A program made the position numbers and the translations under genes. Below, piece after piece: positions 2,556 through 22,505 of a stretch of DNA of 28,129 nt (the stretch's first letter is position 1; each line of letters opens with the position of its first letter). The stretch comes from Candidatus Thorarchaeota archaeon (lineage in GTDB: Archaea; Asgardarchaeota; Thorarchaeia; Thorarchaeales; Thorarchaeaceae), in NCBI GenBank assembly GCA_016933575.1, contig JAFGAR010000099.1, forward strand, positions 1 through 28,129, given 5' to 3'. The notes beneath the pieces are model-generated. The model had not been told where the DNA came from and did no database searches. It saw only the letters and a program-made list of their open reading frames with translations.

Positions 2556-2760
2556 AATTCTCTAACCATCGATTCTCCAATGTATGAGCGCAAGAACAGA
2601 TCTCTGTTATGCATCGCAATTTGATGGTTCCTTTCATCGGATATCCATAGTGCATTTATGCTCCTATTTGAAAACGAGGTTGCCTTACACAAGAAGAGAT
2701 TGCAAAGCATTTTAGTATCGCTTCATCATTACACCAAACTGTATTCACGGAGGATATTTG

Positions 2761-3894
2761 ATGGACGCCCCAAATTGCATCATTGTTGTAGTAGGATCTA
2801 ATCCTCTTCCAAATTTGCTTGTTGTCGCAACAGAGATGGCACACGGAACTCGATTTAGAACGATTCATCTGATTCACTCTGATGAGACGTCGCATGTTGC
2901 ACAAAGGCTGGCGCGATTGTTCAAGTCGCTCAGAGTAAATCCTAACTTCATTTCCGTTAGTTCGTCAACTATGGCACAACAATGCCGGGATTGCATTTCT
3001 ACTTCGATGGGCAACTGCAGACTTGATTACACAGGTGGAACTAAGGTTATGTCTGCCAATACATACTGGCAGTGGCGTCAGCATGGAGGTACAGACGAGC
3101 TTGCATCCTATGTTGATGATAGATCAGGAGTTCTTAGATATGATAATGGCGAAGTTAGGGACCTCGTAATCGGTGTTGGCTTGAAGGATCTTGTTGAAAT
3201 CCATGGGTTGAGTTTGATCCGGACTAGACAGGCAATAAAAGGCGGCCCAACAGCTACAGACGCGAAGCAGATCGCATCAAAGGTTGTACGCAGGTGGAGT
3301 CTTGCGAATGAGATACGAGAGGCCAGTTCAGAGAGGAATCTGCCCATGGATTTCTCAGCTTTTGGGCTAGATCTAAGCATATCTGGAATTGACATCAACC
3401 TGGAGGCAGACCTTCTTAATGTATGGAAGATATTCCTCAGAGGGGGATGGCTGGAGGAATGGATCGCCGCACTCATACAGGAAACGAAGGTCATTGAGAA
3501 AAGGCGTATTCATACTGGTGTTGAGGTAGGAATTGTTGGAGGTAGTTTCGAGCTCGACGTTGTCGCTATTCATCGTCACAGGGCTCATGTTTTGAGTGCA
3601 ACTACTAAAAGTGACTTCCAGGCGTCCAAGCTCAAGCTCTTCGAAGCAATGCAGAGGTCAAAGCAACTAGGAGGATCACTGGCTAGAGCTGCTATTGTTG
3701 TCCCGTTGCGGAAGAAAAGGAATAATTTTGGTGATTTGAATGATCAAGTAAGTGCACTTGAGCAAACCTCGTCGGAGATGTGGGGGCTTCCTAATCCACC
3801 GCGAGTATTTGGATTGGAGGATATGAAGAAGTGGGTTGGTATGCGAGGAAACAAACCCGATATATCGAATCTTAGGGATTGGCTAAGCACCTAG
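2761..3894 (+). CDS. can2: CARF domain + restriction-fold nuclease (Can2/Card1, DUF1887 family), cOA-activated ancillary nuclease
   Basis: CARF motifs VVGSNPLPNL and LDYTGGTKVMS. Nuclease motifs GGWLEEW, FELDVV, LSATT, QLGG-x2-AR. GGAGG lies upstream of ATG 2761. Confidence 0.85.
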   Translation: MDAPNCIIVVVGSNPLPNLLVVATEMAHGTRFRTIHLIHSDETSHVAQRLARLFKSLRVNPNFISVSSSTMAQQCRDCISTSMGNCRLDYTGGTKVMSANTYWQWRQHGGTDELASYVDDRSGVLRYDNGEVRDLVIGVGLKDLVEIHGLSLIRTRQAIKGGPTATDAKQIASKVVRRWSLANEIREASSERNLPMDFSAFGLDLSISGIDINLEADLLNVWKIFLRGGWLEEWIAALIQETKVIEKRRIHTGVEVGIVGGSFELDVVAIHRHRAHVLSATTKSDFQASKLKLFEAMQRSKQLGGSLARAAIVVPLRKKRNNFGDLNDQVSALEQTSSEMWGLPNPPRVFGLEDMKKWVGMRGNKPDISNLRDWLST

Positions 3895-3909
3895 AAGTTC
3901 TTCGGTCAT

Positions 3910-4617
3910 CTATATATGATTCATTAGATCCCCAAAGGAACCAATCCTGACTCGGGATGGTTCTACGATTCCGAGTAGTTGTGCATCCTCCTTCGCTATT
4001 ATAGCAATCCTGTTCGTCCCTCGAACTGCTCCAAGACCTGCAGAGGATCTGGCACCAATACCGATATGTCCTGTACTAATCTCATCTAGAATGAAGAAAA
4101 GGACCTTCAGAGGTTCTTTTTGATCAATATTGGCTATTCGTACCTCAACAATCCCCTTAGAGTCTTCTGATTCCACTACCTGCTGGGAGAATAGGCCTCC
4201 CGGTGCATGTGTTTGTCGTTTTCGATCAATCCTGACATGATTACGAGTACGCACAGCTGTGTCTTCAAGCAGCACATCCGACACTTGCACTGCTCCTTTC
4301 AACGAGAAGTAGGTATCCTCATCTTCCTTCTTCGCAAAACCAAAGAGAATCTCCGACCAAAGCAGCTTCTTATTTCTACCATGTTTAAATTCGCACTCGA
4401 CAGGCTTCAGTGCCAACTTCTCCAGTCGTTCGAATTCGCTCCTCAAGACACCCTTTAGCGAGCTACGAGGGATCAGTGGATAGGAGCCAGATGTTGTTTC
4501 GACTTGAAGAACTTCTTCTCTATCGGGATCAGTCCCTCCAATACGAAGCCCAGAGCATATCTCGAGGCCGAATTTTAGAACTATTTCAGTTTTCAGCATG
4601 CTATAGTCGATGATCAA
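3910..4617 (-). CDS. cas7: Cas7-group RAMP (Csm3-like)
   Basis: LRIGG, PLIPRSSLKGVLRS, LFG, G-rich loop IGARSSAGLG; last gene of the cas operon. Confidence 0.88.
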   Translation of the reverse strand: MIIDYSMLKTEIVLKFGLEICSGLRIGGTDPDREEVLQVETTSGSYPLIPRSSLKGVLRSEFERLEKLALKPVECEFKHGRNKKLLWSEILFGFAKKEDEDTYFSLKGAVQVSDVLLEDTAVRTRNHVRIDRKRQTHAPGGLFSQQVVESEDSKGIVEVRIANIDQKEPLKVLFFILDEISTGHIGIGARSSAGLGAVRGTNRIAIIAKEDAQLLGIVEPSRVRIGSFGDLMNHI

Positions 4618-5750
4618 TGTTCTCCCTCCCAGAAGACAACCTGATTCATTTGTGATGATGTCAGAATCCGATCGCCTATTCCTTGCAATTCCAGCGCAAG
4701 AAGTTTACTAAAGTCGACTTCGGAGATATCCGGAACTCTATAGAAGAAGATGGATCCCTCCTTTGCACCAGTGATCATTGGTTTTTGCAGATTGGTAAGC
4801 ATGGACCACCCCGTGTAGGAATTCACTCTTCCATAGCTCTTTTCAAGATTGAATCCTTCAACCTCTAACACATATGGACGTGATATGAATCGATCGTTCT
4901 CCAAGACCACCGATGCGATACCACTCGTCGCTATAAGGACAAATCCCCCATAGATCTCGATTACCTTTTGAAGAGACGCTTCCTTCTCCTTCACGAACTC
5001 ACTATGGCTCTGCACAAACTCGATGTCATCTATCTCTACAATTCCCCAGCCTCGAGCTCTGCCTGCTCCGAGTTGTAGAAGGGCTCTTGACTTCTTCAGA
5101 TCCCGTATCATGTCTACCAACTCTCCTGAGGCAACTGCTATCTCCGTGATAAGAGGTGTGTGATGCGTGGTGGTCTGCATAAAGAATAAACCTCCTGACG
5201 TAGCCGACCCTGTCACTCCATCAATTGCAACTGCAGGACGTGTATTGATCTCTGGGGTCTGTAATGGTTTTCTACTAGACAAGCAAACTGGACCCGAGTA
5301 TCCTTTCCTAAAATATGGCTTCTTGTGTTTATCACAGAAAGTAGATTGAGAAAGATCTCCTCTCTTCAATAGATCCCCAGTTGCATCATATAATTGCAGA
5401 TGTTTTTTCTCACCTTCACAAGCCTTACAGGAAAGAAATGTAAATGGTGCATGGGGGACCTCCCGTGGTGTATCTGATTCAGATCTCGGAAGTGCTGGTG
5501 ATGCTTTCAGAAATCCCTCGACGGCCTCTTTCTGAAATTTGGATTTGCTGTGTTCGGACAGAGGAATTCTCTTGGCTTCCGTGTGTGGTGTCATCGTCCG
5601 TCTAATGGCTGTCAAGAACGCTCCACGCACTTTCTTTCCGGAGATGAAAGGACTTGCGGGATAGAAGTTCCGTGAAGGTAGTTCCTCTCTTGGCGAAATC
5701 TCCGAGCGTGGCTCCAACCTTATCCTTAGTCGATAAATCTCAGACATCAT
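4614..5750 (-). CDS. csx10: Cas5-group RAMP (Csx10/Cmr3-like)
   Basis: PFISGKKVRGA, LGAGRARGWG and C-terminal GWS-x3-N-x2-KP...GSIF; overlaps both neighbours. Confidence 0.75.
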   Translation of the reverse strand: MMSEIYRLRIRLEPRSEISPREELPSRNFYPASPFISGKKVRGAFLTAIRRTMTPHTEAKRIPLSEHSKSKFQKEAVEGFLKASPALPRSESDTPREVPHAPFTFLSCKACEGEKKHLQLYDATGDLLKRGDLSQSTFCDKHKKPYFRKGYSGPVCLSSRKPLQTPEINTRPAVAIDGVTGSATSGGLFFMQTTTHHTPLITEIAVASGELVDMIRDLKKSRALLQLGAGRARGWGIVEIDDIEFVQSHSEFVKEKEASLQKVIEIYGGFVLIATSGIASVVLENDRFISRPYVLEVEGFNLEKSYGRVNSYTGWSMLTNLQKPMITGAKEGSIFFYRVPDISEVDFSKLLALELQGIGDRILTSSQMNQVVFWEGEH

Positions 5751-6360
5751 CTCTTAGTAGTGCCTCCTTCATTTCTTCAAGAGTCGATTCATGCTCTCCA
5801 AGATCTATCGCGATTCTTGCTCTACTTCTACCTAGTCCCTCTTTCTCAAGCGTTTTGGTAATGAAAAGCGAGATGAACATGTCCACTATCATGTCCTCTT
5901 GTGATAGTGAGTCTGGGACATCAAGAATCATTTCAAATGCAAATCTCGATCCCGGGCTTACTACTTCATGGAAAAAGAGAGCTCCGCTTTCGACGGATCT
6001 ACGTGTAGTATCCAATCGTACTCCAGGGAGGGTTTCTGTCGGAGTAGGTGCGATCAAACGTCCATCAGAGATGACCAGTTTCCCTCTATAATCCTCCACC
6101 CCGAAGAAATCTGCAACAACTGATGCATCGTTGCGAAACGTTGAGAAATATCTCTCAAGTGAACCAGTTGCTACCCGTCTGAGAATTGGAGTCAATCTAG
6201 TCAAGTTCCATCTCAATTTCCCCCTCAGGGTGCTACCTGGAATCATTGGCTTGCCTTGCGACCTCTGAATTGCTAAAATAGGCCCACCTCCTAAGCCAAC
6301 TGATCCACTTCCTATGTGCATAGTGTCCAAAGATTGAAGCACGACATCTATCCGTTTCAT
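5740..6360 (-). CDS. cas7: Cas7-group RAMP (Csm3-like)
   Basis: MHIGSG, PMIPGSTLRGKLR, FFG...RGKLVISDG, GALFFHE. Confidence 0.9.
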   Translation of the reverse strand: MKRIDVVLQSLDTMHIGSGSVGLGGGPILAIQRSQGKPMIPGSTLRGKLRWNLTRLTPILRRVATGSLERYFSTFRNDASVVADFFGVEDYRGKLVISDGRLIAPTPTETLPGVRLDTTRRSVESGALFFHEVVSPGSRFAFEMILDVPDSLSQEDMIVDMFISLFITKTLEKEGLGRSRARIAIDLGEHESTLEEMKEALLRDDV

Positions 6361-8855
6361 TATGTTCCCCCCATCATCATCTTAGTCAGCGTTGCCGCAT
6401 CAAGTACACCCGATCTTCCATGTTCATCTCCTAGAATTAGAAGCCCAATCCTCTTGTATATCTCCGACGATCTCGTCTTCACCTCTTGACGACCCACAAG
6501 ATAAACCGTAAAGGAAACTCCCTCTGCCTTGTTTGCAGCAATGTCAGGTCCCGTCCCTTGTGTGGGTAGTTTCATTCGCTCCAATGGTTCCAAGCACGCC
6601 AGTGAGAAATCTTTCAATCTCGTTGGAAGATCTTTCGCTAATCCTTGATTCACCAATAAATGCTCAAGAGAGATCTTGACAAGATTCTCAGCGAGCTGTG
6701 AAGATTCATCTTGTTGGCATATCGATAATAGAATGTCGTTTTTCAAAGATTCTAGGAAGAGAGGTCTCTGGGATGTACCTTGGTGTCTCCAAGCTTCGTG
6801 AACACGAGCTATCTCCTGAGGGGCACTTAGATTTCCAGATATTCGCTCATAGTCGATCACAATTTTCGGTATAACACCCGATAATATTCTAGATCTTGAT
6901 GTTGCCTTGCAGTATCCTAGTAAAGACTCTGAGGCTGCAAGAATAAAACGTATGGGGTAATCTGGCGGGAATGAAATTATACTGCATGATAAGCTGATAG
7001 TTTTACCCATATAGGTGTGAAACAGATCCCCCAGCTTTATCACAAATTGTAACGCAAAAACAGATGGAGTCAAAACGAGAAGATCGTCGCCTCCTACATA
7101 CAGAGTGCCAAGATCAAGTTGTAACCTAAGATTATTGGCTAGATTGATCCCCATCTCTTCATTAAGCTGATCGGTAGCATGTTGCTTAACAGTATCGACT
7201 AGCCAATCCATTGATTCTGTGACTGCTCTCTCTAGGATCTCTGTTAGGAGAATGTTCTTCTCAATCATTGCGAGTAGATTGGGCACTTTAGCTATATACG
7301 CTCCAGCTAGGTTGGCATCTGCTTTTATCATCGCCAACTCCTGTTTTCCTACGCTTATAGCTGTTCCAGTATTCCCCGCGATATAATCCATAATACCATC
7401 AGAGAACTCCTGCCAAAGCATCTTAGTAATCGATTCCCCAGCAGGACGGAATGATGATGAGCTATCATACACCCTCTTGAAGGAGAATTGGTTCCCATAA
7501 TCCAACAATCTGGAACAATCACCACAGTAAGAGCGCGTTTTCGTTCCTATTCCAATAATCTTTGAAGCAGGTTCAGTTCTACACGAGTCACATCTTTTTT
7601 CGATGCCATAATAGAATTCACTTTGTTGCAGTGTCGTTAGATCATTCTTATTGAGTGTCGAGGAGATCTTTGCGTTCTCAAGGTGATCGAGAAACGACCC
7701 CGCATCATCATCAAGCGTGAATGACGTGGTTGAAAGAACCAATTTGACATGGCGCGTAATCTTTGAGAAGCCACTTACTAAGTGAGTACATAGATCCTTG
7801 GAAACAGTGTGATGGACTATAACAATGAAATTACCTCCACCTGAAGTTATACACGCTTCAAGTGGAATTCGATGCTCCCGAAGGATAGTATAAAGTGAAG
7901 GATATCCCGCCTCCGTTAAGGATGGATCATTCTTCATATAGCCATCAATTAATGAAGAAGCACCTTTCATTTGACTCAGTCTATCCGTGTTTTCAATGAA
8001 ATGCTGTATTCCTGACACATCCGCAAGTATTATCTCTAGATCACCTGTGTTTCCATTGACAGGTCGTGGTTCATACTCATTGATAGCCAATGCCTTTGTT
8101 ACTTCTTCATAGTCACCGATCGATAGTTTCTTCCATGCGGCTTGACTCTCAAAATCCTCTACCTTCCACTTCAGTATCTTACAGATAGAGGTCCTGGATG
8201 ATTTGTACGATTGAAGATATCTTACTATTTCTCGAATAGCCCTTTGAACATCTGTTTCATTGCCATCTGATTTGAGCATATCCACTGTCTGCTCGATCAA
8301 TGGATCTGGTAGAATCTGATCGAAAAGCATCCTCACCCGTTTGAGAAGCAGTTGATAGTCTATCTGTGCGCTGTCATTAAGACCAAGAAAATAGACCAGT
8401 GCTGCTAAACGCATTATGGCCAGATTCTCTCGTTCAATGTCATAGAATTTTGCTGTCAGGAAAGCGGATGTTAGGAGTGCTGCACTTATCGTACCGGTCA
8501 TATTCAATCCCGGTCTTGGATCCGGCGGAATGCTTTGCAGAGCTTCAAGATCCCGTGCAATGTTCTCCAATAGTTCATGCAACTCTATGACATCGATCTT
8601 CAACTCACTCATAACCGTAGCAGCAGCAGCTCGTCTGTCAGCGGACGAAAAGGGAGATCGAAGAAGAAGTGTGAGGATATCTGTGAGATCCCAAATCCTA
8701 TCAAAGCCGCAGATATCCTGAAATCCCAGATTCTTGAGAGTAGAATTCAAACTAACGCAAGATGCATCGATAATTGCCCCCGCATTCTCTATTGCGATAA
8801 CATATCTAGGAATCCCACCGATTAATCTTGGGGTGAAATAGCTCCTGTACAGCAT
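6360..8855 (-). CDS. cas10: Cas10 large subunit; Palm2 GGDD intact, HD domain degenerate
   Basis: ADVSGIQHFI and GGGNF (Palm1); CDSC...CGDC zinc finger; IKADAN and YVGGDDL (Palm2); N-terminal PPDPRPGLN motif. Confidence 0.95.
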   Translation of the reverse strand: MLYRSYFTPRLIGGIPRYVIAIENAGAIIDASCVSLNSTLKNLGFQDICGFDRIWDLTDILTLLLRSPFSSADRRAAAATVMSELKIDVIELHELLENIARDLEALQSIPPDPRPGLNMTGTISAALLTSAFLTAKFYDIERENLAIMRLAALVYFLGLNDSAQIDYQLLLKRVRMLFDQILPDPLIEQTVDMLKSDGNETDVQRAIREIVRYLQSYKSSRTSICKILKWKVEDFESQAAWKKLSIGDYEEVTKALAINEYEPRPVNGNTGDLEIILADVSGIQHFIENTDRLSQMKGASSLIDGYMKNDPSLTEAGYPSLYTILREHRIPLEACITSGGGNFIVIVHHTVSKDLCTHLVSGFSKITRHVKLVLSTTSFTLDDDAGSFLDHLENAKISSTLNKNDLTTLQQSEFYYGIEKRCDSCRTEPASKIIGIGTKTRSYCGDCSRLLDYGNQFSFKRVYDSSSSFRPAGESITKMLWQEFSDGIMDYIAGNTGTAISVGKQELAMIKADANLAGAYIAKVPNLLAMIEKNILLTEILERAVTESMDWLVDTVKQHATDQLNEEMGINLANNLRLQLDLGTLYVGGDDLLVLTPSVFALQFVIKLGDLFHTYMGKTISLSCSIISFPPDYPIRFILAASESLLGYCKATSRSRILSGVIPKIVIDYERISGNLSAPQEIARVHEAWRHQGTSQRPLFLESLKNDILLSICQQDESSQLAENLVKISLEHLLVNQGLAKDLPTRLKDFSLACLEPLERMKLPTQGTGPDIAANKAEGVSFTVYLVGRQEVKTRSSEIYKRIGLLILGDEHGRSGVLDAATLTKMMMGGT

Positions 8856-8856
8856 G

Positions 8857-9177
8857 TTACAACCCTCGCCCTATTTGCTTCAGCATATCATAAAGCGATA
8901 CTATCGAATCTGGATCAATGGGATGACTGATCTCAAGCACATCCAGTATTTCACGCTTAGCTCTGGGGTGAAGGATGATGTCTTGGGGGTTTCCTTTCTT
9001 GATTTGTACTTCATTTCCTTCAACAAATTGACCTTGATCAGAATACCAATTGATTGCATAGAACTCTCCGTTTCGTTCAATTATGCTCATGCCTATCTCT
9101 GCAGAAACTCGATCTAAAGATATGCATGTAGCAAGTTCTCCTACTAGTACCACGTGAAAAAGCGTCTTCTCCGTCAA
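8857..9177 (-). CDS. Small hypothetical protein inside the type III operon (possible accessory subunit)
   Basis: 106-aa ORF tightly coupled to the upstream Cas7 fusion and to cas10; no motif recognised. Confidence 0.6.
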   Translation of the reverse strand: MTEKTLFHVVLVGELATCISLDRVSAEIGMSIIERNGEFYAINWYSDQGQFVEGNEVQIKKGNPQDIILHPRAKREILDVLEISHPIDPDSIVSLYDMLKQIGRGL

Positions 9178-10988
9178 GATGATTCCTCCTCGCAGTCAGA
9201 TAGAGTTCGAATCCCCTCTCCGAAGGCATTCAAAGCCTTTGTTTTCATGTCCCCTACATACTGCGAAACACCATCTTCGATGCTTCTTCCATCATCGAAA
9301 TCAATACCCAAGATCTTTACCATCATACGTCCGAATTCGTTTCGAAAATGGAATCGTCCAATCCGTATTCCTTGTTTCTCACCCGCTCCCATTGATAGCA
9401 GTACCAAACCTAACTTCGTTTCGGAAAGATTCTTGAATTGCAGCTGGCCCATGAATGCTGGAGAGATCTCATCAGTTTTAGCATATCTCACAGCGAGCAG
9501 GCGAGCTGTCTTTCCACTTCCTACTTGAATATTTAAAGGCTGAAGCTTTCCTCTTATAAGAGGTGCATCTTGGACCTCTATCAACGCCTTGAGTGATCCA
9601 TTTTTCGTTGTCATCCCAAAAATATCGCAGACGATACAAGGATGCGAATGATCTCTGCATTCTTCCCGCTGTTGAATTCTCCCTTCTTCTCCATACAATC
9701 TCTTGTGAATAGATGAAGATCTAGATGAATATCTCTCTTGCTTAACGAAACAGCTTTCAACGCTGCCTTCTACTTCGACAAAAGAATGTTCCAATCTTGA
9801 TCTGAACACACCTTTGAGGGTAGATCCTGGAATTACTGTGGTAGGCTTCTCATTTCCTTGATGTTTTTGATAGCTAAACGATTCATATTGATTGATCTTG
9901 CTCTCAAACGACACTCCCATATTCAAAATCTCGTCAAATGATGAGCCAGATTCTATCATCTCGACTATCCTGCTATCAACCTTCTTTGTAGAGGGATGTA
10001 GATGACCTGCTCCCACAAATATGCTATATCCTTTTAGTGGCGTTAGTTCGAACCGGATTCTACCCGAATTCGATAGATGTATCTCATTCCTTGGGGTCAT
10101 GTTCATTTTTCTAACATGCAATAGGTGCCCATTACCTTGACGAGGAATCCCCTCCTTTACTCGATCAATCTCTCTTATGCTTCCGCGCTTAATGGGATGA
10201 TCCCATTTCGCACTTGACCAGTCATTAATCACTTGGGTGAGCGACACATCATTTCCTTTCAAATGATATTGCCAAGGTAGTTCTATCTCTGGTATCTGTT
10301 CCAATGTCCTCTGTTGAAAGACTACGTTAGCTACCGTAACATTCATGCCCCCGAATCCCTTTGTTGTTAGTCCTCCAAGCTTCAGGTGTCCTGAATTGAA
10401 TTTGAAAAGCCTTGACAATAGGAGAGCGAGAGTGACATCATCGACATCACGGATAATCAGTTTGGATGCAAAACGACTGCCAACCTTTACATATTCAATA
10501 GAAAAAAGCGCAGTGTTACTCGTCGCCCCGCCAATACGATCCATAGCGATCCCTTTTCGTTCAGCGGTAGGGACAACACCACCTAACTGACCCGGTAGTA
10601 GCAATGCATCTTCTAGTCTAATTTTGCCTCGATATCCATGAGTTCCAAATAGCTTGCAAGCAGTACAGAATTCATCGATAATCTTCCTTAGCTGCTGTTT
10701 GTTCTTCTCTCTTTGTGCAACTCTAATTCGCTGTTCATGCGCTTTTCCACAAGAATTCTTTCCTTTTTGACTATCACAACAACTCTCTCCAACTCGCTGC
10801 AATTCTGCTACTACAGCACTTCTTAGGACACCTTTCAGACTTGTGCCAGGAAGGTATGGCGTTTCTTTCCCATCAATCCATGTCTTTAGCACTGGCATAT
10901 CAAAATCTTTGCTCTTGCAGTCCGATCCTATTTTCAAGGGTGTAGTATTCTCCCAAAGCAATTCAAAGATATACTCCCCTTCTATCAT
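9174..10988 (-). CDS. cas7: Cas7-Cas7 fusion RAMP (type III-D-like), with Cys-rich zinc sites
   Basis: Two RAMP motif sets: PYLPGTSLKGVLRS...CTACKLFG...LGGLTTKGFG, and VIPGSTLKGVFRS...CIVCDIFG...IGRFHFRNEFG. Confidence 0.9.
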   Translation of the reverse strand: MIEGEYIFELLWENTTPLKIGSDCKSKDFDMPVLKTWIDGKETPYLPGTSLKGVLRSAVVAELQRVGESCCDSQKGKNSCGKAHEQRIRVAQREKNKQQLRKIIDEFCTACKLFGTHGYRGKIRLEDALLLPGQLGGVVPTAERKGIAMDRIGGATSNTALFSIEYVKVGSRFASKLIIRDVDDVTLALLLSRLFKFNSGHLKLGGLTTKGFGGMNVTVANVVFQQRTLEQIPEIELPWQYHLKGNDVSLTQVINDWSSAKWDHPIKRGSIREIDRVKEGIPRQGNGHLLHVRKMNMTPRNEIHLSNSGRIRFELTPLKGYSIFVGAGHLHPSTKKVDSRIVEMIESGSSFDEILNMGVSFESKINQYESFSYQKHQGNEKPTTVIPGSTLKGVFRSRLEHSFVEVEGSVESCFVKQERYSSRSSSIHKRLYGEEGRIQQREECRDHSHPCIVCDIFGMTTKNGSLKALIEVQDAPLIRGKLQPLNIQVGSGKTARLLAVRYAKTDEISPAFMGQLQFKNLSETKLGLVLLSMGAGEKQGIRIGRFHFRNEFGRMMVKILGIDFDDGRSIEDGVSQYVGDMKTKALNAFGEGIRTLSDCEEESS

Positions 10989-11001
10989 GTTTGGATGCCT
11001 C

Positions 11002-11667
11002 CTACAATTGAATCTCAGATGTGATATCTCTATATTGCAACTCGAGCGAACGCACAGACTCCTTAGTAAGAACCTCTATCCTTTCCACATCTAGATGTAC
11101 CACGCCAAGCCCCGCTGATGTTTTACCTCCGATCGCGATATTCCCACGGCTGAGTTCGCGTAAAACCAACTTCAATACCTTTGAGATAATGGTTTCTTCT
11201 CTAAGATCAATATTCTCGAGAACCAGTTGAAATGAGAATTGCGTACTAGGGGCAATTGTTTCCAGCTCATACTTCATGCCATGGCTTGCTGCGCCAGTGA
11301 TCGCGTCGATCGCAACCCCTGGTTTTGTTTCTGTCATCACGGGCTGCAATGGAAGACAATCCGAAAATGAAGCATGGCCCTTCACTCTCAACGAATCATC
11401 AGAATTCCCAAAGATATAGTTAATTATCAACTGCTTATCAGAATGATCTTCAATCAATCTCTCTGTATATCCCCGAATCACACCCTTCAGGCTCGATCCT
11501 GGGATATATGGGACCGACTCCCCTCTAATTGATGTTCTAATTATTGGATTATCATACTTTTCAGCCTTAGTCCCTGATCCGATATGCAATTGGGTCTTAT
11601 TCGTTATAGAACCCTTAATCACTGTTCTGCACTCGAACTTGTCAAAATCATCAGGCCGAATGGTCAT
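11002..11667 (-). CDS. csm3: Cas7 backbone RNase (Csm3/Csx7-like)
   Basis: LHIGSG, YDNPII (candidate catalytic Asp), PYIPGSSLKGVIR, IGGKTSAGLG. Confidence 0.93.
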   Translation of the reverse strand: MTIRPDDFDKFECRTVIKGSITNKTQLHIGSGTKAEKYDNPIIRTSIRGESVPYIPGSSLKGVIRGYTERLIEDHSDKQLIINYIFGNSDDSLRVKGHASFSDCLPLQPVMTETKPGVAIDAITGAASHGMKYELETIAPSTQFSFQLVLENIDLREETIISKVLKLVLRELSRGNIAIGGKTSAGLGVVHLDVERIEVLTKESVRSLELQYRDITSEIQL

Positions 11668-12065
11668 CGCCTCTCTCTCCTCTCTGGACTAGGAGCAAAG
11701 ACTTGTCTGGCAAACTCATCAAATGCTGAATTCTCGTTTTGAATTCTAATCGAATCCAATTCCTCTGCACCTTTGAAGAGTCGTTTTATGTGATTCAGAT
11801 ATTGCCGAGCTGTCCTAGCAGGATCTTTCTCATCGGACTTGATTACCTCCATAAGATCCTGATAGACACATTTACAGAACTCCTTCGGAAGAATCCGTCC
11901 TGACTGATATACAAGGTGCTCTTGCACAGCATAGATACCTTCAACACCTTGTCTTGATGATAGCACCTCAAGAAGCTGATTCAATTGAGACGAACCCTCT
12001 CGTTTCTTCTTGAGCAGTTTACTTACACTAATAGCAGCTTTATTGAGAAGTATTTGTGTTTCCAT
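11664..12065 (-). CDS. cas11: Probable Cas11 small subunit (Csm2-like)
   Basis: About 133 aa, helical-looking and basic, with a YQSGR motif; first gene of the effector operon. Start may be GTG 12068. Confidence 0.65.
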   Translation of the reverse strand: METQILLNKAAISVSKLLKKKREGSSQLNQLLEVLSSRQGVEGIYAVQEHLVYQSGRILPKEFCKCVYQDLMEVIKSDEKDPARTARQYLNHIKRLFKGAEELDSIRIQNENSAFDEFARQVFAPSPERRERR

Positions 12066-12177
12066 CACACCACGCTCCTAATCCATCACCATGTCACGAA
12101 CCTAGATATAAGATTATAGGATTTTTCCTGTGAATATGGTTTATCGAGGAAACATGCGTTTGTGATGGAAAGTTTCT

Positions 12178-12996
12178 CTACATTAGCTCTATATCGGTTG
12201 AGATCATTCCAAGACCCGCAGTACGGTGCTTTCCGATATTACTATATTCTGCGAAACGAGCAAGACCAGCAGTCATCCGCGACATTGGGATCGAGCCATC
12301 TTTGATGGTATAGTACACAGTGCCAATGAATCCAACTATCTGCATACCAGATCCTGTCTTTAGTGGATAGGTTCTTATCGTGTATCTCGGGATCTCGATA
12401 TTTCTTTTTACCCACTCCCTGTACTCCCCAAGCGGGAAGAAATAGGTCGTTCTATCTATAGACTGCCAGATTTTCATCAAGGCAGGGAAGACCTTTTCAG
12501 GCATAGGGAACAAGCATAATGCGTTCGAATCTGAATGTGCCAGCTGCGTTGGAGTGCGGAATGTCAATGCGATCCGAATCCTCTCAGCTTTTTGCAGCTC
12601 TGGTGCGTCTACCCATGTATGCATGATTTCTTGGGGCTCCATAATCGAAACACCAATGCGTCGTACTGGCAAGATGTTCTCATACAAGCGAATGTACAAA
12701 TCATCCTTCAGAATCAGGTGCTTGGTGAAATCACGGTAGTTTTGGTGATTAAGGAGAGTGATATCGAAGGAGTCCTCAATTCCCTGTCGTAGTGTCGTGC
12801 TGAAATGCCTGTCATGCGACATAATGCCGAGGGCATACATCCGAACTCCCTGTCCTTGGTGAGTATCACTACTCAGTTTTCTATCATAATTCTTCAAGAT
12901 GTCGAGAAAGGCTGCGCGAAGAGGGATGCCTGAGAATCCTATCTCCTTGGTCACGGGACTGGTTATATCAAACCTTAGAGATATCAAGCTTAGCAA
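12178..12996 (-). CDS. cas6: Cas6 crRNA-processing endoribonuclease
   Basis: FRTPT, LFPMPEKVF, GFIG and C-terminal IGKHRTAGLG loop; TTG start preceded by AGGAGG. Confidence 0.93.
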   Translation of the reverse strand: MLSLISLRFDITSPVTKEIGFSGIPLRAAFLDILKNYDRKLSSDTHQGQGVRMYALGIMSHDRHFSTTLRQGIEDSFDITLLNHQNYRDFTKHLILKDDLYIRLYENILPVRRIGVSIMEPQEIMHTWVDAPELQKAERIRIALTFRTPTQLAHSDSNALCLFPMPEKVFPALMKIWQSIDRTTYFFPLGEYREWVKRNIEIPRYTIRTYPLKTGSGMQIVGFIGTVYYTIKDGSIPMSRMTAGLARFAEYSNIGKHRTAGLGMISTDIELM

Positions 12997-13244
12997 CGCC
13001 TCCTCCTAGTGTGTTTGTCTTCAAGCATCTGGCAATCAACCGGACGCTTCTTTCTCACATGATCCGTCCTAGTGATTACATTAGACCCCTGATAAGGATC
13101 GATAGAGAACCTTTCTCATAAGCCTTTCAAGTATTGCAAGGGTTTCCTTATAAGCAAGGTTGCAGATTCCCGATCCCCTTGAGAGCAATTCAAGAAGAGG
13201 TCTATACTTGCTTATTTTCGCAAAATTGATATATCTTCGCTCCT
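12997..13244 (+). promoter_or_regulatory. Probable leader of array 2, divergent from cas6
   Basis: Non-coding stretch next to the non-degenerate end of array 2, with TTATAA-like elements. Confidence 0.6.
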
Positions 13245-13725
13245 CTTGCAAAAGCAGATCCCACCTATAGGGAATTGAAACACGAAAAAGTCAAAGATTG
13301 CTGGTGCTTTCTTGACCCCCAGCTTGCAAAAGCAGATCCCACCTATAGGGAATTGAAACATGTCGTATGAAGCCGATGAAGTCCTCCAAACACGGCCACT
13401 CTTGCAAAAGCAGATCCCACCTATAGGGAATTGAAACCATTGAACTCTGTAATCGCATCAAGCATACCTTCCAAACTTGCAAAAGCAGATCCCACCTATA
13501 GAGAATTGAAACATATAGTACCCATAGTCCATGCCCATCGTCGCATCGCACTTGCAAAAGCAGATCCCACCTATAGGGAATTGAAACTACCAACTTGGTC
13601 TAATAGTCACATTGTCCTTGATGTATATCTTGCAAAAGCAGATCCCACCTATAGGGAATTGAAACTCCATGGATGCGGAGACCACACTGAAAACTTGTCT
13701 TCTTTGCCTGATCGTTTTGCAAAAG
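13245..13725 (+). CRISPR. CRISPR array 2: 6 repeats CTTGCAAAAGCAGATCCCACCTATAGGGAATTGAAAC (37 bp) plus a terminal remnant
   Basis: Repeats at 13245, 13323, 13401, 13476 (one G>A), 13551 and 13629. Spacers between full repeats are 38-41 bp. Remnant TTGCAAAAG at about 13717. Confidence 0.98.
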
Positions 13726-14458: not shown

Positions 14459-14563
14459 GTTTCCACCTCTCACCAAGCATTTGATGGATTATGCTCCATG
14501 ATTATAACATTTGCCTTTCGCATGAAAGCTTTGTATTGATGATGTATATCCAAATGACTATTA

Positions 14564-16582: not shown

Positions 16583-16692
16583 AGAGGAGCTGCGATATTT
16601 GATTCTTATCTGTATCACTTGCAATCAGGAGGGAAAGTTTCTGGCGGATATCCTAAATGCTCATGGTTCAAGGATATTCTGGTGGTAAAAGC

Positions 16693-17388: not shown

Positions 17389-17389
17389 C

Positions 17390-18162: not shown

Positions 18163-19014
18163 TTGGAGTTCTACACACAGAAAGGTGCCGTTTGCGCGTC
18201 TATCGTCAGCTTTAGCTTGAGCATCGGCTTTAGAGGTTTGATAATCTGTTTTTCGACAATCAAGGATACAGTGGCACTGCTCTTGTATTTTCCTCTGTGG
18301 ATTTCTATTGATCTGCTGTTGATAGTCGCTTTCTCAATCTATGGATTCTTTTTTGTATCTCTATCAATCATCATTACGAATCACTTCCAAATGTTTCTCT
18401 TGATCGATCCCTTGATGTATTCGTTTTTTGAAATTAATATACTATCAATTCAGATACTAGCACAATATAGCGAGAAGCTAAATTCACTTGTAGGTGCAGA
18501 TATTTACGATTATGTTCTTTCAATTCTAATTCCTTTTCTCCTGGCAATATCCTTCACCTGTATTCTCCTCTTTCACATGTCAATACCAATCTATGTATCA
18601 TGGGTTACTCAAATTGCTACTCTATTCACAGGCTATTTTGGCGCCCTGTTGCTAGGCATGTATCCTTGCCGATACTTCCTTCTGCAAAGAAAGGCAAATC
18701 CCTACACATGGGGTTCTCCATTCCTCATGGATCTACTTTACTTCAATATACAAGGCACTTCTCATGGTAGATCTCTTAGCCATGTGACCCAACCAGTGCA
18801 TTCTACACGAAGACCTCAATCAACTGCGAGAAGTGACCCTCGTAGTGATCACATAATTGGAACCCCGCGGAGCGAATCCAGAAGAGTCAATGATACGATC
18901 ATTGCTCCGAATATGGTACTGATAACCCCCCGAGGAGAGATAATCTGTTCAAGATGTGGGACCTCGAATTGGACAAGCAGGCGACGTTGTAGAAGATGTC
19001 AGGCAGCACTATAG
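18163..19014 (+). CDS. Multi-pass membrane protein with C-terminal RanBP2-type zinc finger
   Basis: About 4-5 hydrophobic segments, a polar linker, then CSRC-GTS-N-WTSRRR-CRRC (C-x2-C-x3-N-x6-C-x2-C); AGGAGG upstream. Confidence 0.7.
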   Translation: MEFYTQKGAVCASIVSFSLSIGFRGLIICFSTIKDTVALLLYFPLWISIDLLLIVAFSIYGFFFVSLSIIITNHFQMFLLIDPLMYSFFEINILSIQILAQYSEKLNSLVGADIYDYVLSILIPFLLAISFTCILLFHMSIPIYVSWVTQIATLFTGYFGALLLGMYPCRYFLLQRKANPYTWGSPFLMDLLYFNIQGTSHGRSLSHVTQPVHSTRRPQSTARSDPRSDHIIGTPRSESRRVNDTIIAPNMVLITPRGEIICSRCGTSNWTSRRRCRRCQAAL

Positions 19015-19125: not shown

Positions 19126-19527
19126 ATGTCTGGAAACGATGATGTTGTCTATATCGATGAGGAAGGAAATGTGATTTCTGCGAATAGAGTTTCAAAAACC
19201 TCAAAGCAACCCAAAGGAGCTTTATCAGCAATACGGGATAATTTGGGAGAGTTCTCCAACGATAGAAATGACGGTTCTGATGTTGTCTATATAGACGAGG
19301 AAGGGAATGTGATATCTGGAAACCGAGTCCCATCAACGACAGATGCGGAGAAGGGCGCAAAGACAGCAATTCGAGATAATCTTGGTGAATTCTCAGAGAA
19401 TAGAGATCAAGTATCGAAGGTCGTTCATGTAGATGAAGAAGGTAATGTGATATCTACATCAGAGGAAGATGAAGAACCTGAGAAGCAGATAACAGCTATT
19501 CGTGATAACCTTGGAGAATTTAGGTAG
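19126..19527 (+). CDS. Three-unit tandem-repeat peptide protein; putative conjugation-tag or RiPP-like precursor
   Basis: Units of 44, 46 and 43 aa, each VV[YH][IV]DEEGNVIS-variable-AIRDNLGEF[S/R]. DNA differences within the motifs are mostly synonymous, supporting that it is coding. Function is inferred. Confidence 0.8.
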   Translation: MSGNDDVVYIDEEGNVISANRVSKTSKQPKGALSAIRDNLGEFSNDRNDGSDVVYIDEEGNVISGNRVPSTTDAEKGAKTAIRDNLGEFSENRDQVSKVVHVDEEGNVISTSEEDEEPEKQITAIRDNLGEFR

Positions 19528-19540
19528 AGGGAGATCAGAC

Positions 19541-19984
19541 ATGAAGCGAGGACAGAGCTATCACATGGGCGTTAGTCGGGAGATACTCATAATGGGTGCT
19601 GATTTGAATCGTCCTCGCATGAGAGTCGAATATGAGAGAGTTTCGCAGTTTTGCAAGGGATTCAGCTTCAAGAAGAAAACTTTGGCGGGAAAAGAGGTAC
19701 TAGACAGAGTTGAGGGATATTTCACCATCGAGGGTAGACGATTCGGACTTCGTATCATGATTCCAAAGAACTATCCATACGAGATCCCGAGGGTATTTCC
19801 CCTTGGGTGGAGGCCCCAAGGAGCACCTCATCAATACTGCGGTGGTGATCTCTGTTTGATGCGACCCGAACAGTGGAATGAGATATACTCCCTCGCTTTC
19901 GTCATCAAAAAGGCGCAATACTGGGTTCACAAGTATCTCAAATGGCGAATGACCGGAAAGTGGCCTGGTAGGTCTCAAGATTAG
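19541..19984 (+). CDS. Prokaryotic E2 (UBC-fold) conjugating enzyme
   Basis: IPKNYPYEIPRV, PHQY-x3-DLCL (catalytic Cys), downstream W, and C-terminal W-x3-G-x-WPG. Confidence 0.85.
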   Translation: MKRGQSYHMGVSREILIMGADLNRPRMRVEYERVSQFCKGFSFKKKTLAGKEVLDRVEGYFTIEGRRFGLRIMIPKNYPYEIPRVFPLGWRPQGAPHQYCGGDLCLMRPEQWNEIYSLAFVIKKAQYWVHKYLKWRMTGKWPGRSQD

Positions 19985-19995
19985 GAGGCGAAAGG

Positions 19996-20847
19996 ATGGA
20001 TTTCGATAGAATTCAGTATATTCTTGCACCAGAGGAACTTGAAAAGAAGCGAGTCGTTGTGATAGGCCTGGGAAGTGGAGGTGCTCCTGTCGTTCAGCAT
20101 CTTGCTATGAGCGGGGTCCGCAAGTGGTCTTTGTTTGATCCCGATCTCCTTGATGAAGTGAACCTTGTCAAACATCCTGGGATGCGAAAGGACCTAGGGA
20201 AGACTAAGATCGCTGTGATAGCTGAATGGCTAATGGATAGGAATCCAGATTCCGAGATCCGAGAATTCCCTGAGGATATCCTCGATTCAACAGACTTCGA
20301 GAGAGAGGCTAGAAATGCGCATCTTATCATCTCTGCAACTGATACACTTTCAGTTCGGCAGTTCATCAATAGAATCGCTGTGAGGCATGGTATTCCTTGT
20401 GTCACTGCCAGCGTCTTTCGAACAGCTTTCGGAGGAGAAGTGTACTCGTATATCCCCGGGAAAACTGGATGCTATCAGTGTATGAACATCGTCAGCGGTA
20501 AGCTGGGTTGGGGGAATATCGAGAATCAAGTTGAGATGACTGAAGATGAACAGGACCGAATATACGGACTCGGTCAGGAAGATTATCGAGCATCAGGTCT
20601 ATCGATGGACATCGCGATAATTTCAGCGATTATGGCAAAAAGAGCCCTAAGCCTTCTATTAGATTCTCCCAATCCAGTTTATTTTCCCCAGGATTCCTCC
20701 AATTATCTGATTTTCTATATGCGTGGAATGGGATCAATCCCCTCGCTGTCAAGCTTGAAGTATGCAATTCCTGCTCAGAAGGATTGCTTCTGTTCGTTTA
20801 ACGACGGCGAAGAATCAGCTGCTAATGAAATCAGTGACCTGGAGTGA
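19996..20847 (+). CDS. ThiF/MoeB/E1-like adenylating enzyme
   Basis: VVVIGLGSGG, FDPD-x5-NLVKH, DLGKTK, SATD, GCYQC and C-terminal CFC. Confidence 0.93.
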   Translation: MDFDRIQYILAPEELEKKRVVVIGLGSGGAPVVQHLAMSGVRKWSLFDPDLLDEVNLVKHPGMRKDLGKTKIAVIAEWLMDRNPDSEIREFPEDILDSTDFEREARNAHLIISATDTLSVRQFINRIAVRHGIPCVTASVFRTAFGGEVYSYIPGKTGCYQCMNIVSGKLGWGNIENQVEMTEDEQDRIYGLGQEDYRASGLSMDIAIISAIMAKRALSLLLDSPNPVYFPQDSSNYLIFYMRGMGSIPSLSSLKYAIPAQKDCFCSFNDGEESAANEISDLE

Positions 20848-21884
20848 TATGGATGAAACTAAAGGGATTTTTGCAGAAACAAGAAAGAGTTCTCTATCTC
20901 ACTCAACTACGGGAATCATTTGGCCTCGATAGGGTGATTATCTCAACCAATCTACTCAACTCAATGGTCAATCGAGCCAGCGAATATCCCGTCATGGAAG
21001 AAGGCGGTGTGCTGGTTGGATATATTGAAAGCGATTGGGATCCGTTGAATGGTTTCTCTAATCCCCATGCGAAGATTCATATCGTGAACTTTATCCCAAG
21101 TGGTCCACGAGCGCAAAGGTCTTCTACCCATCTATTTTCAGACCTTACATTTCAGGAATTTGAGTTTCAAAGACTTCATGATATCGATCCTAACATGCTA
21201 CATCTTGGTAGCTGGCACAGTCACCACTGTAATGGATTGAAGAATCTAAGTGAAGGTGATCTAAATTCATACTTCAATATTCTCCACTCAAAGAATCATG
21301 CCCATGACTTCTATCTGGCAGTACTTCTACATACCTTTCCTACTGGTAGGTTGAGAAAGAAAAGTGAAGTAATGCATTCCTTCTCTTTCTACTTGATATC
21401 TCGAAAAACCGGAAAGACCGTGTTCATCTTGGACAGTTCTTGTATTGAAGTAACTCAGGATCTTGTGCTATATGCAGATTTCATTAGTTCAGGATACGAG
21501 CTTCCAACTGAATTAGATGTTCAAGAGAAGCGTGAAAGATCATGGTTCATTAGAGATCAAGCGAAGGAGATTTTGAAAGAGGACAATATTTTACTTAGTT
21601 CATTACTATCCGAGTTTCCCTATATTATTCAAGGCAACTCTATTGTCATAGAAGGCACATACGCTCTTAGACTAGTACGTCGATACTATGCAGGAAACAC
21701 CTTGATCGAATACCAATATCCGGAAACAACTGATGCTGAAGGAATAGAGATCCTCCTGTACGATATTTCCCAGATGGAAAACGAACATAGTGATCTGACG
21801 CTCAAAATCAGGGCTGGTCCGATTAGTATTCGGCATGAGATCTTCTCAGTGGTGCTGGGTTATTTTCAAGAATCTTGGACCTAA
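20844..21884 (+). CDS. JAB/JAMM (MPN+) metallopeptidase with unknown C-terminal domain
   Basis: EEGGVLVG and LGSWHSHH-x7-SEGD; start overlaps the E1 stop (GTGA). Confidence 0.9.
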   Translation: MIWMKLKGFLQKQERVLYLTQLRESFGLDRVIISTNLLNSMVNRASEYPVMEEGGVLVGYIESDWDPLNGFSNPHAKIHIVNFIPSGPRAQRSSTHLFSDLTFQEFEFQRLHDIDPNMLHLGSWHSHHCNGLKNLSEGDLNSYFNILHSKNHAHDFYLAVLLHTFPTGRLRKKSEVMHSFSFYLISRKTGKTVFILDSSCIEVTQDLVLYADFISSGYELPTELDVQEKRERSWFIRDQAKEILKEDNILLSSLLSEFPYIIQGNSIVIEGTYALRLVRRYYAGNTLIEYQYPETTDAEGIEILLYDISQMENEHSDLTLKIRAGPISIRHEIFSVVLGYFQESWT

Positions 21885-21893
21885 GGAAACATC

Positions 21894-22505
21894 TCACTCA
21901 TATTGATTTCTTATCTTTGTAATCATCTCATTAAGATCGTTGATATCGGTGAGTACAATTTCTGCGTCATCGGAATCGAGCTCATATACAGGTTTCCCCA
22001 TGATTTCAGGACTGAACCTCCGAAGCCAGTAGTATGATAATGTTACCTTTCGTTCGTACCTATTGTTGAGGATATATCCCGCTAAGACCGCGCTTGATGC
22101 CATCGTTTTTCTTCCTGCTGTAGTATCTATTATGATCCTTTCGTTTCTTGCCGTCTTGTGAAAAATCCCTTCCGTTATGCACTTTACACCAAGGCTTAGG
22201 TTCTCTTCAGGTATCCATACTATGTCGTCTGGGTGGAAGGTGATATCATCCAATCCATCCGAATGCATATGTTCAAGATTCTTCGTAAGCAGATCAATTA
22301 CCTCTTTGACATACTGCTGACTCGTAGATGAGGGTTCTGCTCTCTCATCCCAAGATGTGACAAAGAAGATGTCACCTATTGGAACATGTCTATCGTCCAT
22401 CAAATAGGATGCTATCGAATTCGCACAGGCAATTGGCGTTATTCCTACAACCGAAAAATAGGACCCCGTTGGTTTCAGCCTCAAGAAAAGCAACACTCCT
22501 ATCAA
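21894..22505 (-). CDS. Stand-alone CARF domain protein (candidate ring nuclease or cOA sensor)
   Basis: SVVGITP, FFVTS and IIIDTTAGRKTMAS CARF motifs; no effector domain; start uncertain. Confidence 0.75.
   Translation of the reverse strand: MIGVLLFLRLKPTGSYFSVVGITPIACANSIASYLMDDRHVPIGDIFFVTSWDERAEPSSTSQQYVKEVIDLLTKNLEHMHSDGLDDITFHPDDIVWIPEENLSLGVKCITEGIFHKTARNERIIIDTTAGRKTMASSAVLAGYILNNRYERKVTLSYYWLRRFSPEIMGKPVYELDSDDAEIVLTDINDLNEMITKIRNQYE

Follow-up and report, generated by a model that had tools for sequence, protein, structure and literature searches.

A three-unit peptide precursor beside Cap2/Cap3-like E2, E1, and JAB genes in a thorarchaeal type III CRISPR-Cas locus: a candidate disordered protein tag

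An open reading frame in a Candidatus Thorarchaeota contig encodes three consecutive copies of a short peptide, each with the invariant C-terminal motif AIRDNLGEF, and adjoins genes for a stand-alone E2, a ThiF-type E1, and a JAB peptidase. We propose, with slightly more belief than doubt, that the frame is a poly-precursor of a small disordered protein tag that would be released by the JAB peptidase and activated by the E1 and E2 enzymes. We regard the whole system as a variant of the Cap2/Cap3 type of conjugation module, one whose putative substrate is of a new kind. The features of the window (the entire 28,129-nt stretch of DNA that was analyzed) are collected in Table 1.

Table 1. Features of the window. 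Positions are numbered from the first nucleotide of the window; residue numbers refer to the encoded protein.
Feature	Position	Strand	Description
Type III CRISPR-Cas context	1..13665	.	Arrays, Card1-like nuclease, RAMP genes, Cas10, Cas6
CRISPR array, 34 repeats	1-2479		
Card1-like CARF nuclease	2758-3894		
Cas10	6360-8855	-	
Cas6	12178-12996	-	
Second CRISPR array, 6 repeats	13245-13665		
Two thioredoxin-fold genes	16657-18091		
Multi-pass membrane protein	18163..19014	+	C-terminal C-x2-C-x3-N-x6-C-x2-C (RanBP2/NZF-like) zinc ribbon
Three-unit peptide precursor ORF	19126..19527	+	133 aa plus stop; ATG start; identified by translation and family membership
Unit 1	19126..19254	+	aa 1-43; hairpin motif aa 7-18, then linker; tail AIRDNLGEF aa 35-43; predicted hairpin aa 8-19
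Unit 2	19255..19392	+	aa 44-89; hairpin motif aa 53-64; tail aa 81-89; predicted hairpin aa 54-65
Unit 3	19393..19521	+	aa 90-132; hairpin motif VVHVDEEGNVIS aa 99-110; tail aa 124-132; predicted hairpin aa 98-113
Arg133 codon and TAG stop	19522..19527	+	Single extra residue capping the putative mature C-terminus
Stand-alone E2, Cap2-type	19541..19984	+	147 aa; invariant His97 and Cys105 (APHxY...LC[LV]M); frame differs from that of the peptide ORF
ThiF-type E1 adenylation enzyme	19996..20847	+	283 aa; Zn site (TGCxxC and C-terminal CxC); crossover loop without cysteine
JAB/JAMM peptidase, Cap3-like	20844..21884	+	346 aa; EEGG, HSHH, and S..D motifs; extra C-terminal half
Stand-alone CARF protein	21894..22505	-	203 aa; also in the G028 and L020 loci

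Organization of the precursor

Translation of the precursor ORF reproduced exactly what an initial annotation, made from the letters of the DNA, had described: three units, each consisting of a hairpin motif (VV[YH][IV]DEEGNVIS), a variable Lys/Ser/Glu-rich linker, and the invariant AIRDNLGEF. The units were 43, 46, and 43 residues long and followed one another head to tail, with the variable linker as the sole spacer. The tail was succeeded by Ser in units 1 and 2, and Ser44, the first residue of unit 2, directly follows the putative cut. In unit 3 it was succeeded by Arg133 and then the stop codon, so that the protein does end just past the third motif with GEFR in place of GEFS, as had been pointed out. 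A Shine-Dalgarno-like GAGGG was located 9 nt 5' of the precursor ATG.

Differences in synonymous codons had been read as a sign of selection on the peptide, and a comparison of the units bore this out. Across 21 conserved codons, pairs of units differed by 9-12 synonymous versus 0-2 non-synonymous changes, with dN of 0.02-0.06 and dS ranging from 1.4 to saturated (NG86). Because synonymous sites are saturated while dN is low, the repeat is old and every copy is under strong purifying selection on the peptide. Nucleotide identity between whole units was only 60-65%, which explains why Tandem Repeats Finder reported no repeat in the precursor region. A chance ORF was ruled out by dN/dS together with conservation across phyla.

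Distribution of the peptide family

The true relatives returned by a HMMER search over 1.8 billion representatives numbered just two (P0002 and P0003), each with three units fused to the N-terminus of an E2 domain. Their operons ran from E2 to ThiF and then to a protein of 394-439 aa that has no Pfam assignment and occupies the JAB position. We built a unit profile from 14 units and then searched for small proteins, which yielded 96 proteins of 42-107 aa, nearly all of them single-unit and none with a Pfam domain or a name. A search for longer proteins added two more three-unit E2 fusions, P0104 and P0105, that were 58-60% identical to the window precursor. The units of all four fusions were in frame with E2, and GE[FY] was followed by A or T at the junction. 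All five multi-unit proteins contained exactly three units, and four of the five were fused to E2.

Comparison of copy number and C-terminal residues across genomes by means of a unit profile, a check proposed along with the initial annotation, thus uncovered single, triple, and E2-fused forms. The peptide family comprised about 100 small proteins, distributed over archaea, cyanobacteria, Desulfobacterales, and one actinomycete. Genome G028, which belongs to the same family as the window's archaeon and to another genus, encoded a single-unit ORF of 47 aa ending in ...AIRDNLGEFAL. Searching GTDB genomes with an E2 alignment retrieved loci in Microcoleus/Oscillatoriales cyanobacteria, Desulfobacula, and Phytohabitans (Microcoleus and Phytohabitans being represented by cultured strains), and in each of them a small ORF with both motifs lay directly 5' of the E2 gene. 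The consensus tail was ...[TA][AI][IL]RDxxGE[FY], with the variant ILRDPxGEY in a clade that has bacterial members.

Other searches were less productive. A degenerate DNA pattern for AIRDNLGEF, run against metagenome contigs, found one true locus (L024) and two chance matches that were discarded, L025 (a glycosyltransferase) and L026. A single-sequence, word-indexed search matched only a Streptococcus MucBP fragment, whose likeness was confined to the hairpin and which we rejected as a relative; the window's own protein was absent from those results. No E2 relative was found in viral contigs. The search of sequencing runs listed no RNA dataset, and its sole match was a sediment metagenome, possibly the source of this DNA. 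A literature search, with subscription journals outside its coverage, found no description of the peptide. Judged by its sequences, the peptide family is real, and it is unannotated in the family libraries searched.

C-terminal end of the unit

The tail ...[IL][RS]DxxGE[YF] was carried by 94 of the 96 small proteins. Half of these (47/94) stopped exactly after GE[YF], and a stop codon directly after Y was confirmed on DNA in six loci (L011, L012, L013, L016, L019, and L022). The other 47 carried 1-24 extra residues that were unconserved even at the first extra position, and in the poly and fused forms the residue following GE[FY] was S, A, or T. Since half of the homologues end at GE[YF] and the extensions are unconserved, the mature C-terminus is best placed, as far as sequence can indicate, at the aromatic residue of GE[FY]. 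None of the archaeal-type members ended exactly at GEF, all of them having 1-4 extra residues or a fusion; for this clade the putative cut site is assigned by parsimony and by extension from bacterial and cyanobacterial relatives.

The end pattern of the family supports, at the level of sequence, the suggestion that AIRDNLGEF is a conserved C-terminal tail for processing or activation. The two cut sites suggested along with it fared worse. A cut after Gly or after GEFS is unlikely because the resulting ends would be variable or truncated across the family, given the 47 of 94 homologues that end at GE[YF] and the lack of conservation in the residue that follows. By analogy, the pattern matches that of ubiquitin-like precursors, in which a defined end is either exposed or masked by extra residues, further copies, or a fused enzyme. 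The window precursor has the organization of a poly-modifier, its three contiguous units each ending in AIRDNLGEF and the last being capped by a single Arg, but the family tail is GE[FY], as opposed to the Gly or Gly-Gly end of beta-grasp modifiers.

We also considered whether the peptide might be a non-covalent regulator or adaptor of E2, E1, and JAB. As a pseudo-substrate, inhibitor, or scaffold it would occupy the E1 or JAB site or tether a partner, with its three units working together, in cis when fused, and with neither release nor conjugation. Such a role would suit the four relatives that carry three units as an N-terminal extension of E2, the unit number of three in all five multi-unit proteins, and the third hairpin that was placed with moderate confidence beside the E2 domain in the AlphaFold model of P0104. 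Indeed, the constant three units and the E2 fusions make a cis-acting, uncleaved role conceivable and count against the tag mechanism. However, about 100 members are separate genes, and the finding that half end at GE[YF] while the rest bear unconserved tails argues that a free, defined C-terminus is required, which a binding motif would not need. Moreover, cleavage of a Ubl-E2 fusion by a JAB domain has already been demonstrated for BubAB, where the JAB domain of BubCD makes the cut and the BubCD E1 lacks a catalytic cysteine (PMC11601596). We therefore regard the regulator as an unlikely reading that still deserves some weight, and we favor the released tag.

Predicted structure

The units had been judged too short for a beta-grasp fold, and structure prediction agreed. 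AlphaFold2, run on the window precursor with a 99-sequence alignment, gave a pTM of 0.23 and three isolated beta-hairpins, one in each unit of 43-46 aa, with coil elsewhere and no globular fold; the hairpin of unit 3 reached a pLDDT of about 90. The AlphaFold model of the fused relative P0104 had an E2 domain with a pLDDT of about 90, three units that again formed isolated hairpins, and linkers and tails with a pLDDT below 50; none of the units was docked onto the E2 domain with confidence. The ESM Atlas model of the precursor had a pLDDT of 0.27, and the ESM Atlas search gave no usable match. A profile search of the PDB with the unit found nothing below an E value of 0.07, and no ubiquitin-like match to the precursor was obtained in Pfam, NCBIfam, or the PDB. 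Folding of the units together into a known repeat domain was seen neither in the AlphaFold models nor through the ESM Atlas or the PDB profile. According to these predictions, the units have no beta-grasp and no known repeat domain and are mostly disordered peptide. The unit layout and the isolated hairpins together support a multi-copy, head-to-tail precursor of a short peptide outside the beta-grasp fold, as had been proposed.

Linked enzymes

The three enzymes encoded next to the precursor were compared with defense-system models in PADLOC. All three had CBASS models as their best matches: the E1-E2 model for E1 (1.3e-25), the E1-E2 and E2 models for E2 (5e-8 and 9e-8), and the JAB model for JAB (3e-9). 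All three weakly matched the NCBIfam 6A-MBL Cap2/Cap3 fusion model, and the E2 genes of peptide relatives carry PF26395 (E2-CBASS) on record. The start of the JAB gene overlaps the stop of the E1 gene. The active-site His and Cys were invariant in the E2 alignment. An alignment of 11 E1 proteins conserved only the two Zn-binding Cys pairs among cysteines, and the crossover loop contained invariant IYGL and ASGL and no Cys. The E2, E1, and JAB proteins thus appear Cap2/Cap3-like, and their catalytic motifs look intact from sequence. Read-through or a frameshift that would fuse the peptide to E2 in the window was rejected, as the E2 ORF opens with a separate ATG at 19541, preceded by an AGGGAG site and out of frame with the peptide, and G028 even has a gene between the peptide and E2.

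The closest solved relative of the E1 by sequence was MccB (E 1e-18, versus 1e-6 for Cap2), the E1-like enzyme of the microcin C7 system, whose short peptide substrate is adenylated at its C-terminus. With its conserved cores and variable linkers, the precursor could accordingly be a multi-core RiPP-type precursor, in which the MccB-like E1 would modify the C-termini of the cores, as for microcin C7 or pantocin, and JAB would free them to yield a secreted or signalling peptide. The alignment to MccB, though, covered only MccB residues 107-279, beginning at residue 9 of the E1, and left out the N-terminal peptide clamp. An E2 with intact catalytic motifs was always present, whereas no exporter or immunity gene was conserved. 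Conservation extends over the entire unit instead of being confined to a short core, the peptide ends in F or Y where MccA has Asn, and the surroundings, with E2 and JAB, are those of CBASS or CRISPR defense and not of a bacteriocin. A RiPP is, in our assessment, highly unlikely.

We rejected even more firmly a sulfur-carrier-like substrate, for which the E1 would make a peptide thiocarboxylate (as for ThiS, MoaD, or CysO) and JAB would play the part of Mec+. In its favor, the E1 resembles ThiF/MoeB and has no catalytic cysteine, and the two thioredoxin-fold genes upstream in the window would suit such a carrier. The thioredoxin genes were not found in the G028 or L020 loci, however, and no rhodanese or sulfurtransferase was linked. 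The peptide has neither a beta-grasp nor a C-terminal Gly-Gly, E2 with its catalytic Cys is always there, and the context is one of defense, all of which leaves this explanation scarcely credible. A protein tag handed from E1 to E2 remains our preferred reading.

Genomic context

The association of the peptide with E2, E1, and JAB, on which the initial annotation had built, held in every locus with readable neighbors: the window, G028, L011-L017, L018, L019, L020/L021, L022, and L023. Linkage was scored for loci of that kind; the L024 contig ends after a peptide-E2 fusion, and no genes are listed after the peptide for P0049. A family occurring mainly apart from E1 and JAB was not what we found wherever neighbors could be read. 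The peptide and this E2 clade were distributed alike over 61 related genomes, being present in the same two and in no other, a descriptive count in which the genomes are kin and not independent. This four-gene layout corresponds to none of the operon types (6a-6e) that Iyer et al. described in 2006.

Archaeal-type members had as neighbors cas1/cas2 or type III genes, together with a CARF protein and a membrane zinc-ribbon protein. A homologue of the last adjoined the peptide gene in all four archaeal-type loci, which makes it a candidate effector, target, or reader. In G028, the order after the peptide was a membrane-NYN-zinc-ribbon protein, E2, E1, JAB, cas1, and cas2. No SMODS or CD-NTase gene was detectable in the window or in its genome, which is 85.5% complete. 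ThiF appears, with no further detail, in the list of CRISPR-linked genes of Altae-Tran et al.

The bacterial operons of the ILRDPxGEY clade had a different setting resembling type II CBASS, with a SMODS cyclase followed by an optional patatin or NUDIX effector, the peptide, E2, E1, and JAB. In the peptide-bearing CBASS loci L014, L019, L022, and L023, the cyclase ended 5-7 residues past its last helix, while the closest solved CD-NTase extends 38 residues further. Such tail-less cyclases would suit a tail that has moved onto a separate peptide.

In type II CBASS, the CD-NTase has a disordered C-terminal tail that Cap2 first adenylates and then transfers; it ends in ...TGRFA in E. cloacae CdnD and in ...KPGGFA in the B. 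cereus cyclase; known Cap2 systems join the cyclase to lysines of a partner, and Cap3 cuts exactly after the last residue (Ledvina et al., preprint 10.1101/2022.03.31.486616; Jenson et al., PMC10097602; Krueger et al., PMC11153139). This raised the possibility that the peptide is an acceptor, whose Lys/Arg-rich stretch before the tail, or whose N-terminus, receives the C-terminus of another protein such as the cyclase or a Cas/CARF protein, with three units providing three sites. A basic residue 3-5 positions before [TA][AI][IL]RD was kept in most units, and attachment of the cyclase to partner lysines by known Cap2 systems offers a precedent. On the other hand, the cyclases in peptide-bearing operons have no tail to donate, no CD-NTase was found in the 85.5% complete genome of the window, and an acceptor would leave the exact C-terminal end pattern unexplained. 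We consider the acceptor role distinctly unlikely and the donor role, that of the tag itself, the better account.

Discussion

From the anatomy of the precursor, the selection on it, its family, end pattern, and linkage, its predicted disorder, and the apparently intact enzyme motifs, we infer a course of cleavage, adenylation, and transfer, along with probable targets. JAB would cut after the aromatic residue of each unit, releasing three peptides with identical ...GEF ends and removing Arg133; this step is drawn by analogy with Cap3, which cuts at the last residue of its substrate, and with the BubCD JAB, which cuts a Ubl-E2 fusion. The ThiF-type E1 would then adenylate the C-terminal carboxylate of GEF. 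As a cysteine is missing from the crossover loop of the E1, the acyl group would go straight to Cys105 of the Cap2-like E2, which would hand the peptide to an amino group on a target, and JAB would also reverse the conjugation. The peptide would in this way stand in for the long C-terminal tail that the CD-NTase has in type II CBASS. Probable targets in the bacterial relatives are the tail-less cyclase and its partners, and in this archaeon it is probably a component of the type III CRISPR/CARF locus or the adjacent membrane zinc-ribbon protein.

One feature that counts against the tag mechanism is the aromatic terminal residue. To our knowledge, E1 adenylation pockets rarely take such a residue; the substrates known for them end in Gly or Ala, and that of MccB in Asn. 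We find the evidence evenly poised on the wider proposal, in which a disordered peptide of about 40 residues would be a genuine modifier, supplied by single, triple, and E2-fused precursors, trimmed by JAB to an aromatic end, and conjugated by a Cap2-like E2 after activation by an E1 that has no catalytic cysteine. Encoded in trans, it would do the work of the CD-NTase tail in one subclass of CBASS, and in archaea it would link ubiquitin-type conjugation to type III CRISPR/CARF signalling.

The initial annotation pointed to a likeness to the ends of Cap2-conjugated CD-NTases, and this likeness is real, TGRFA and GGFA corresponding to GE[FY]. As an overall interpretation it has stood in its precursor layout, its conserved tail, its tie to E2, E1, and JAB, and its likeness to Cap2 substrates, whereas both of its proposed cut sites are unlikely. 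As in type II CBASS, the peptide is a predicted disordered tail whose conserved end contains Gly and an aromatic residue, and the bacterial peptide genes sit inside SMODS/patatin/NUDIX operons. Unlike Cap2 systems, E2, E1, and JAB are three separate genes here and not a fusion, the E1 has no crossover-loop cysteine, and the tail is found on a free peptide of 40-75 aa or on a triple repeat instead of on the cyclase. The putative terminal residue is aromatic (F or Y) where theirs is Ala or Gly, and the archaeal version resides in a type III CRISPR locus in which no CD-NTase was detected.

Other modifiers share some of these features. The copies are arranged head to tail without a spacer and the last one bears an extra residue, as in polyubiquitin, and there are enzyme-fused forms, an operon-encoded metalloprotease, and an E1 without a catalytic cysteine, as in BubAB. 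Unlike either, the unit is about 43 aa long, has no beta-grasp, and would end in an aromatic residue instead of Gly. The E2 here has its cysteine, whereas Bub works via oxyesters (PMC11601596). A small, disordered, non-beta-grasp candidate modifier also calls to mind a different kind of tag. Pup is a small, intrinsically disordered actinobacterial modifier that is not a beta-grasp protein; it is ligated by the glutamine-synthetase-like PafA through the side chain of a C-terminal Glu, after deamidation by Dop, with no E1, E2, or JAB. The window peptide has no sequence similarity to Pup and lacks its C-terminal GGQ/GGE, and the enzymes linked to it are E1, E2, and JAB.

Known E1/E2/JAB conjugation in prokaryotic immunity uses either beta-grasp ubiquitin-like proteins (Bil, Bub) or the cyclase's own tail (type II CBASS). 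Our proposal points to a third arrangement, in which the tail would be supplied in trans by a very small disordered peptide. If correct, it would add an overlooked, unannotated gene to a subclass of CBASS operons, explain the function of operons with tail-less cyclases, and supply the first concrete substrate for E1/E2/JAB sets in archaeal CRISPR-Cas loci. It would also mean that E1 enzymes can select for an aromatic C-terminus and that Pup is joined by a second kind of non-beta-grasp prokaryotic tag, and the minimal 35-40 residue handle could serve as a ligation tag.

The hairpin is likely to be a recognition element, either for one of the enzymes or for a reader. Its motif, [HY]VDEEGNVIS, narrowly passed the cut-offs of the SSSPR-51/MucBP models (PF18877, TIGR04308, PF06458; 27.6 versus 27 bits and 37 versus 35 bits), with positions 3-27 of 48 matched and one of the three units significant. 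Unlike the surface proteins that carry SSSPR-51/MucBP repeats, the precursor has neither a signal peptide nor a wall anchor, the latter half of the repeat is missing from it, its host is an archaeon, and the remainder of the unit is a different conserved tail that is common to the E2-linked family. Going by these comparisons, the match is a generic resemblance between hairpins that could cause mis-annotation. In the PDB profile search, the hairpin pattern of the unit also weakly matched the blades of unrelated beta-propellers.

Genomic surroundings of the module

In all four archaeal-type loci (the window, L009, L020 and L024), the peptide gene was adjoined by a gene for a multi-pass membrane protein with a C-x2-C-x3-N-x6-C-x2-C zinc ribbon at its C-terminal end. 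This ribbon matched the Pfam RanBP2/NZF model weakly (E 0.024), and the version at L009, the locus of genome G028 from another genus of the same family, additionally contained an NYN RNase domain. Because NZF fingers bind ubiquitin in eukaryotes, the membrane protein could be the reader, target or effector.

The beta-CASP nuclease of the window gave weak matches to aCPSF1 and to type VII Cas14. An MBL partner is the hallmark of 6A E2-E1-JAB operons, and for this reason a tie between the nuclease and the E2-E1-JAB module is conceivable. The winged-helix protein encoded next to the nuclease was found in L020 too. The thioredoxin-fold pair was not found at L009 or L020. In both of these loci the CARF gene was accompanied by a conserved PIN-like protein, with 63% identity between the two versions. 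The two CRISPR arrays of the window had related repeats, and between them lay a complete type III effector set consisting of Cas10, several RAMPs, Cas6 and a Card1-like CARF nuclease.

Features surrounding the module in the window and at archaeal-type loci of relatives
Feature	Locus and position	Strand	Remark
CRISPR array, 34 copies of 37-nt repeat	window 1-2479		reaches window edge
Card1-like CARF nuclease	window 2758-3894		
Cas10	window 6360-8855	-	
CRISPR array, 6 copies of 37-nt repeat	window 13245-13665		
HFX_2341-N/DUF6293 winged-helix protein	window 13760-14476	-	neighbour of beta-CASP nuclease
Beta-CASP metallo-beta-lactamase (MBL) nuclease, 686 aa	window 14564-16624	-	N-terminal zinc ribbon
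Two thioredoxin-fold genes, side by side	window 16657-18091		immediately upstream of module
Membrane zinc-ribbon protein	window 18163-19014; L009 3838-5124; L020 about 7722-8489; L024 297-1136		
PIN-like protein, 363 aa	L009 1177-2268 (-); L020 5271-6359		

Variation among relatives

When the crossover loop of the window E1 (19996-20847) was compared with that of 10 homologues, IYGL and ASGL were invariant and none of the loops contained a cysteine. The invariant tyrosine recalls Y370 of the cysteine-less BubCD E1, the sole invariant residue of the crossover loop in that enzyme.

Cyanobacterial peptides (L011 5730-5954, L012, L013 and L016; proteins P0074, P0090 and P0095) had an additional 40-aa N-terminal part containing a Gly/Ala-rich helix (for example ...GVISAAARGVGRSI... 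and ...GGVVGGVGGSLG...), which looks like a glycine-zipper membrane segment. These cyanobacterial loci consisted of the four module genes only and had no cyclase, and the peptide may therefore bear its own cargo there.

The bacterial CBASS-like locus L019 had the typical SMODS-peptide-E2-E1-JAB arrangement plus patatin, except that an inserted pair of IS630-type transposase genes (7309-8257) separated the peptide gene from E2. On the contig encoding P0002, in which three units are fused in frame to E2, the fused set was followed by a second E2-ThiF-346-aa set (4642-6984), and the ∼880 nt without a called gene preceding this second set could conceal a further small peptide ORF.

Gene calling and naming

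The E2 gene of L020 (1179-1604, +) was absent from the source gene calls, in which a 115-aa ORF was called on the opposite strand; with the window E2 as tblastn query, the two proteins were 51% identical over 142 aa. The third hairpin of the window peptide (19126-19527) scored just above the curated cut-offs of Pfam SSSPR-51 (27.6 bits, cut-off 27) and TIGR04308 (37, cut-off 35), and automatic pipelines could therefore mis-name this archaeal peptide a streptococcal surface repeat.
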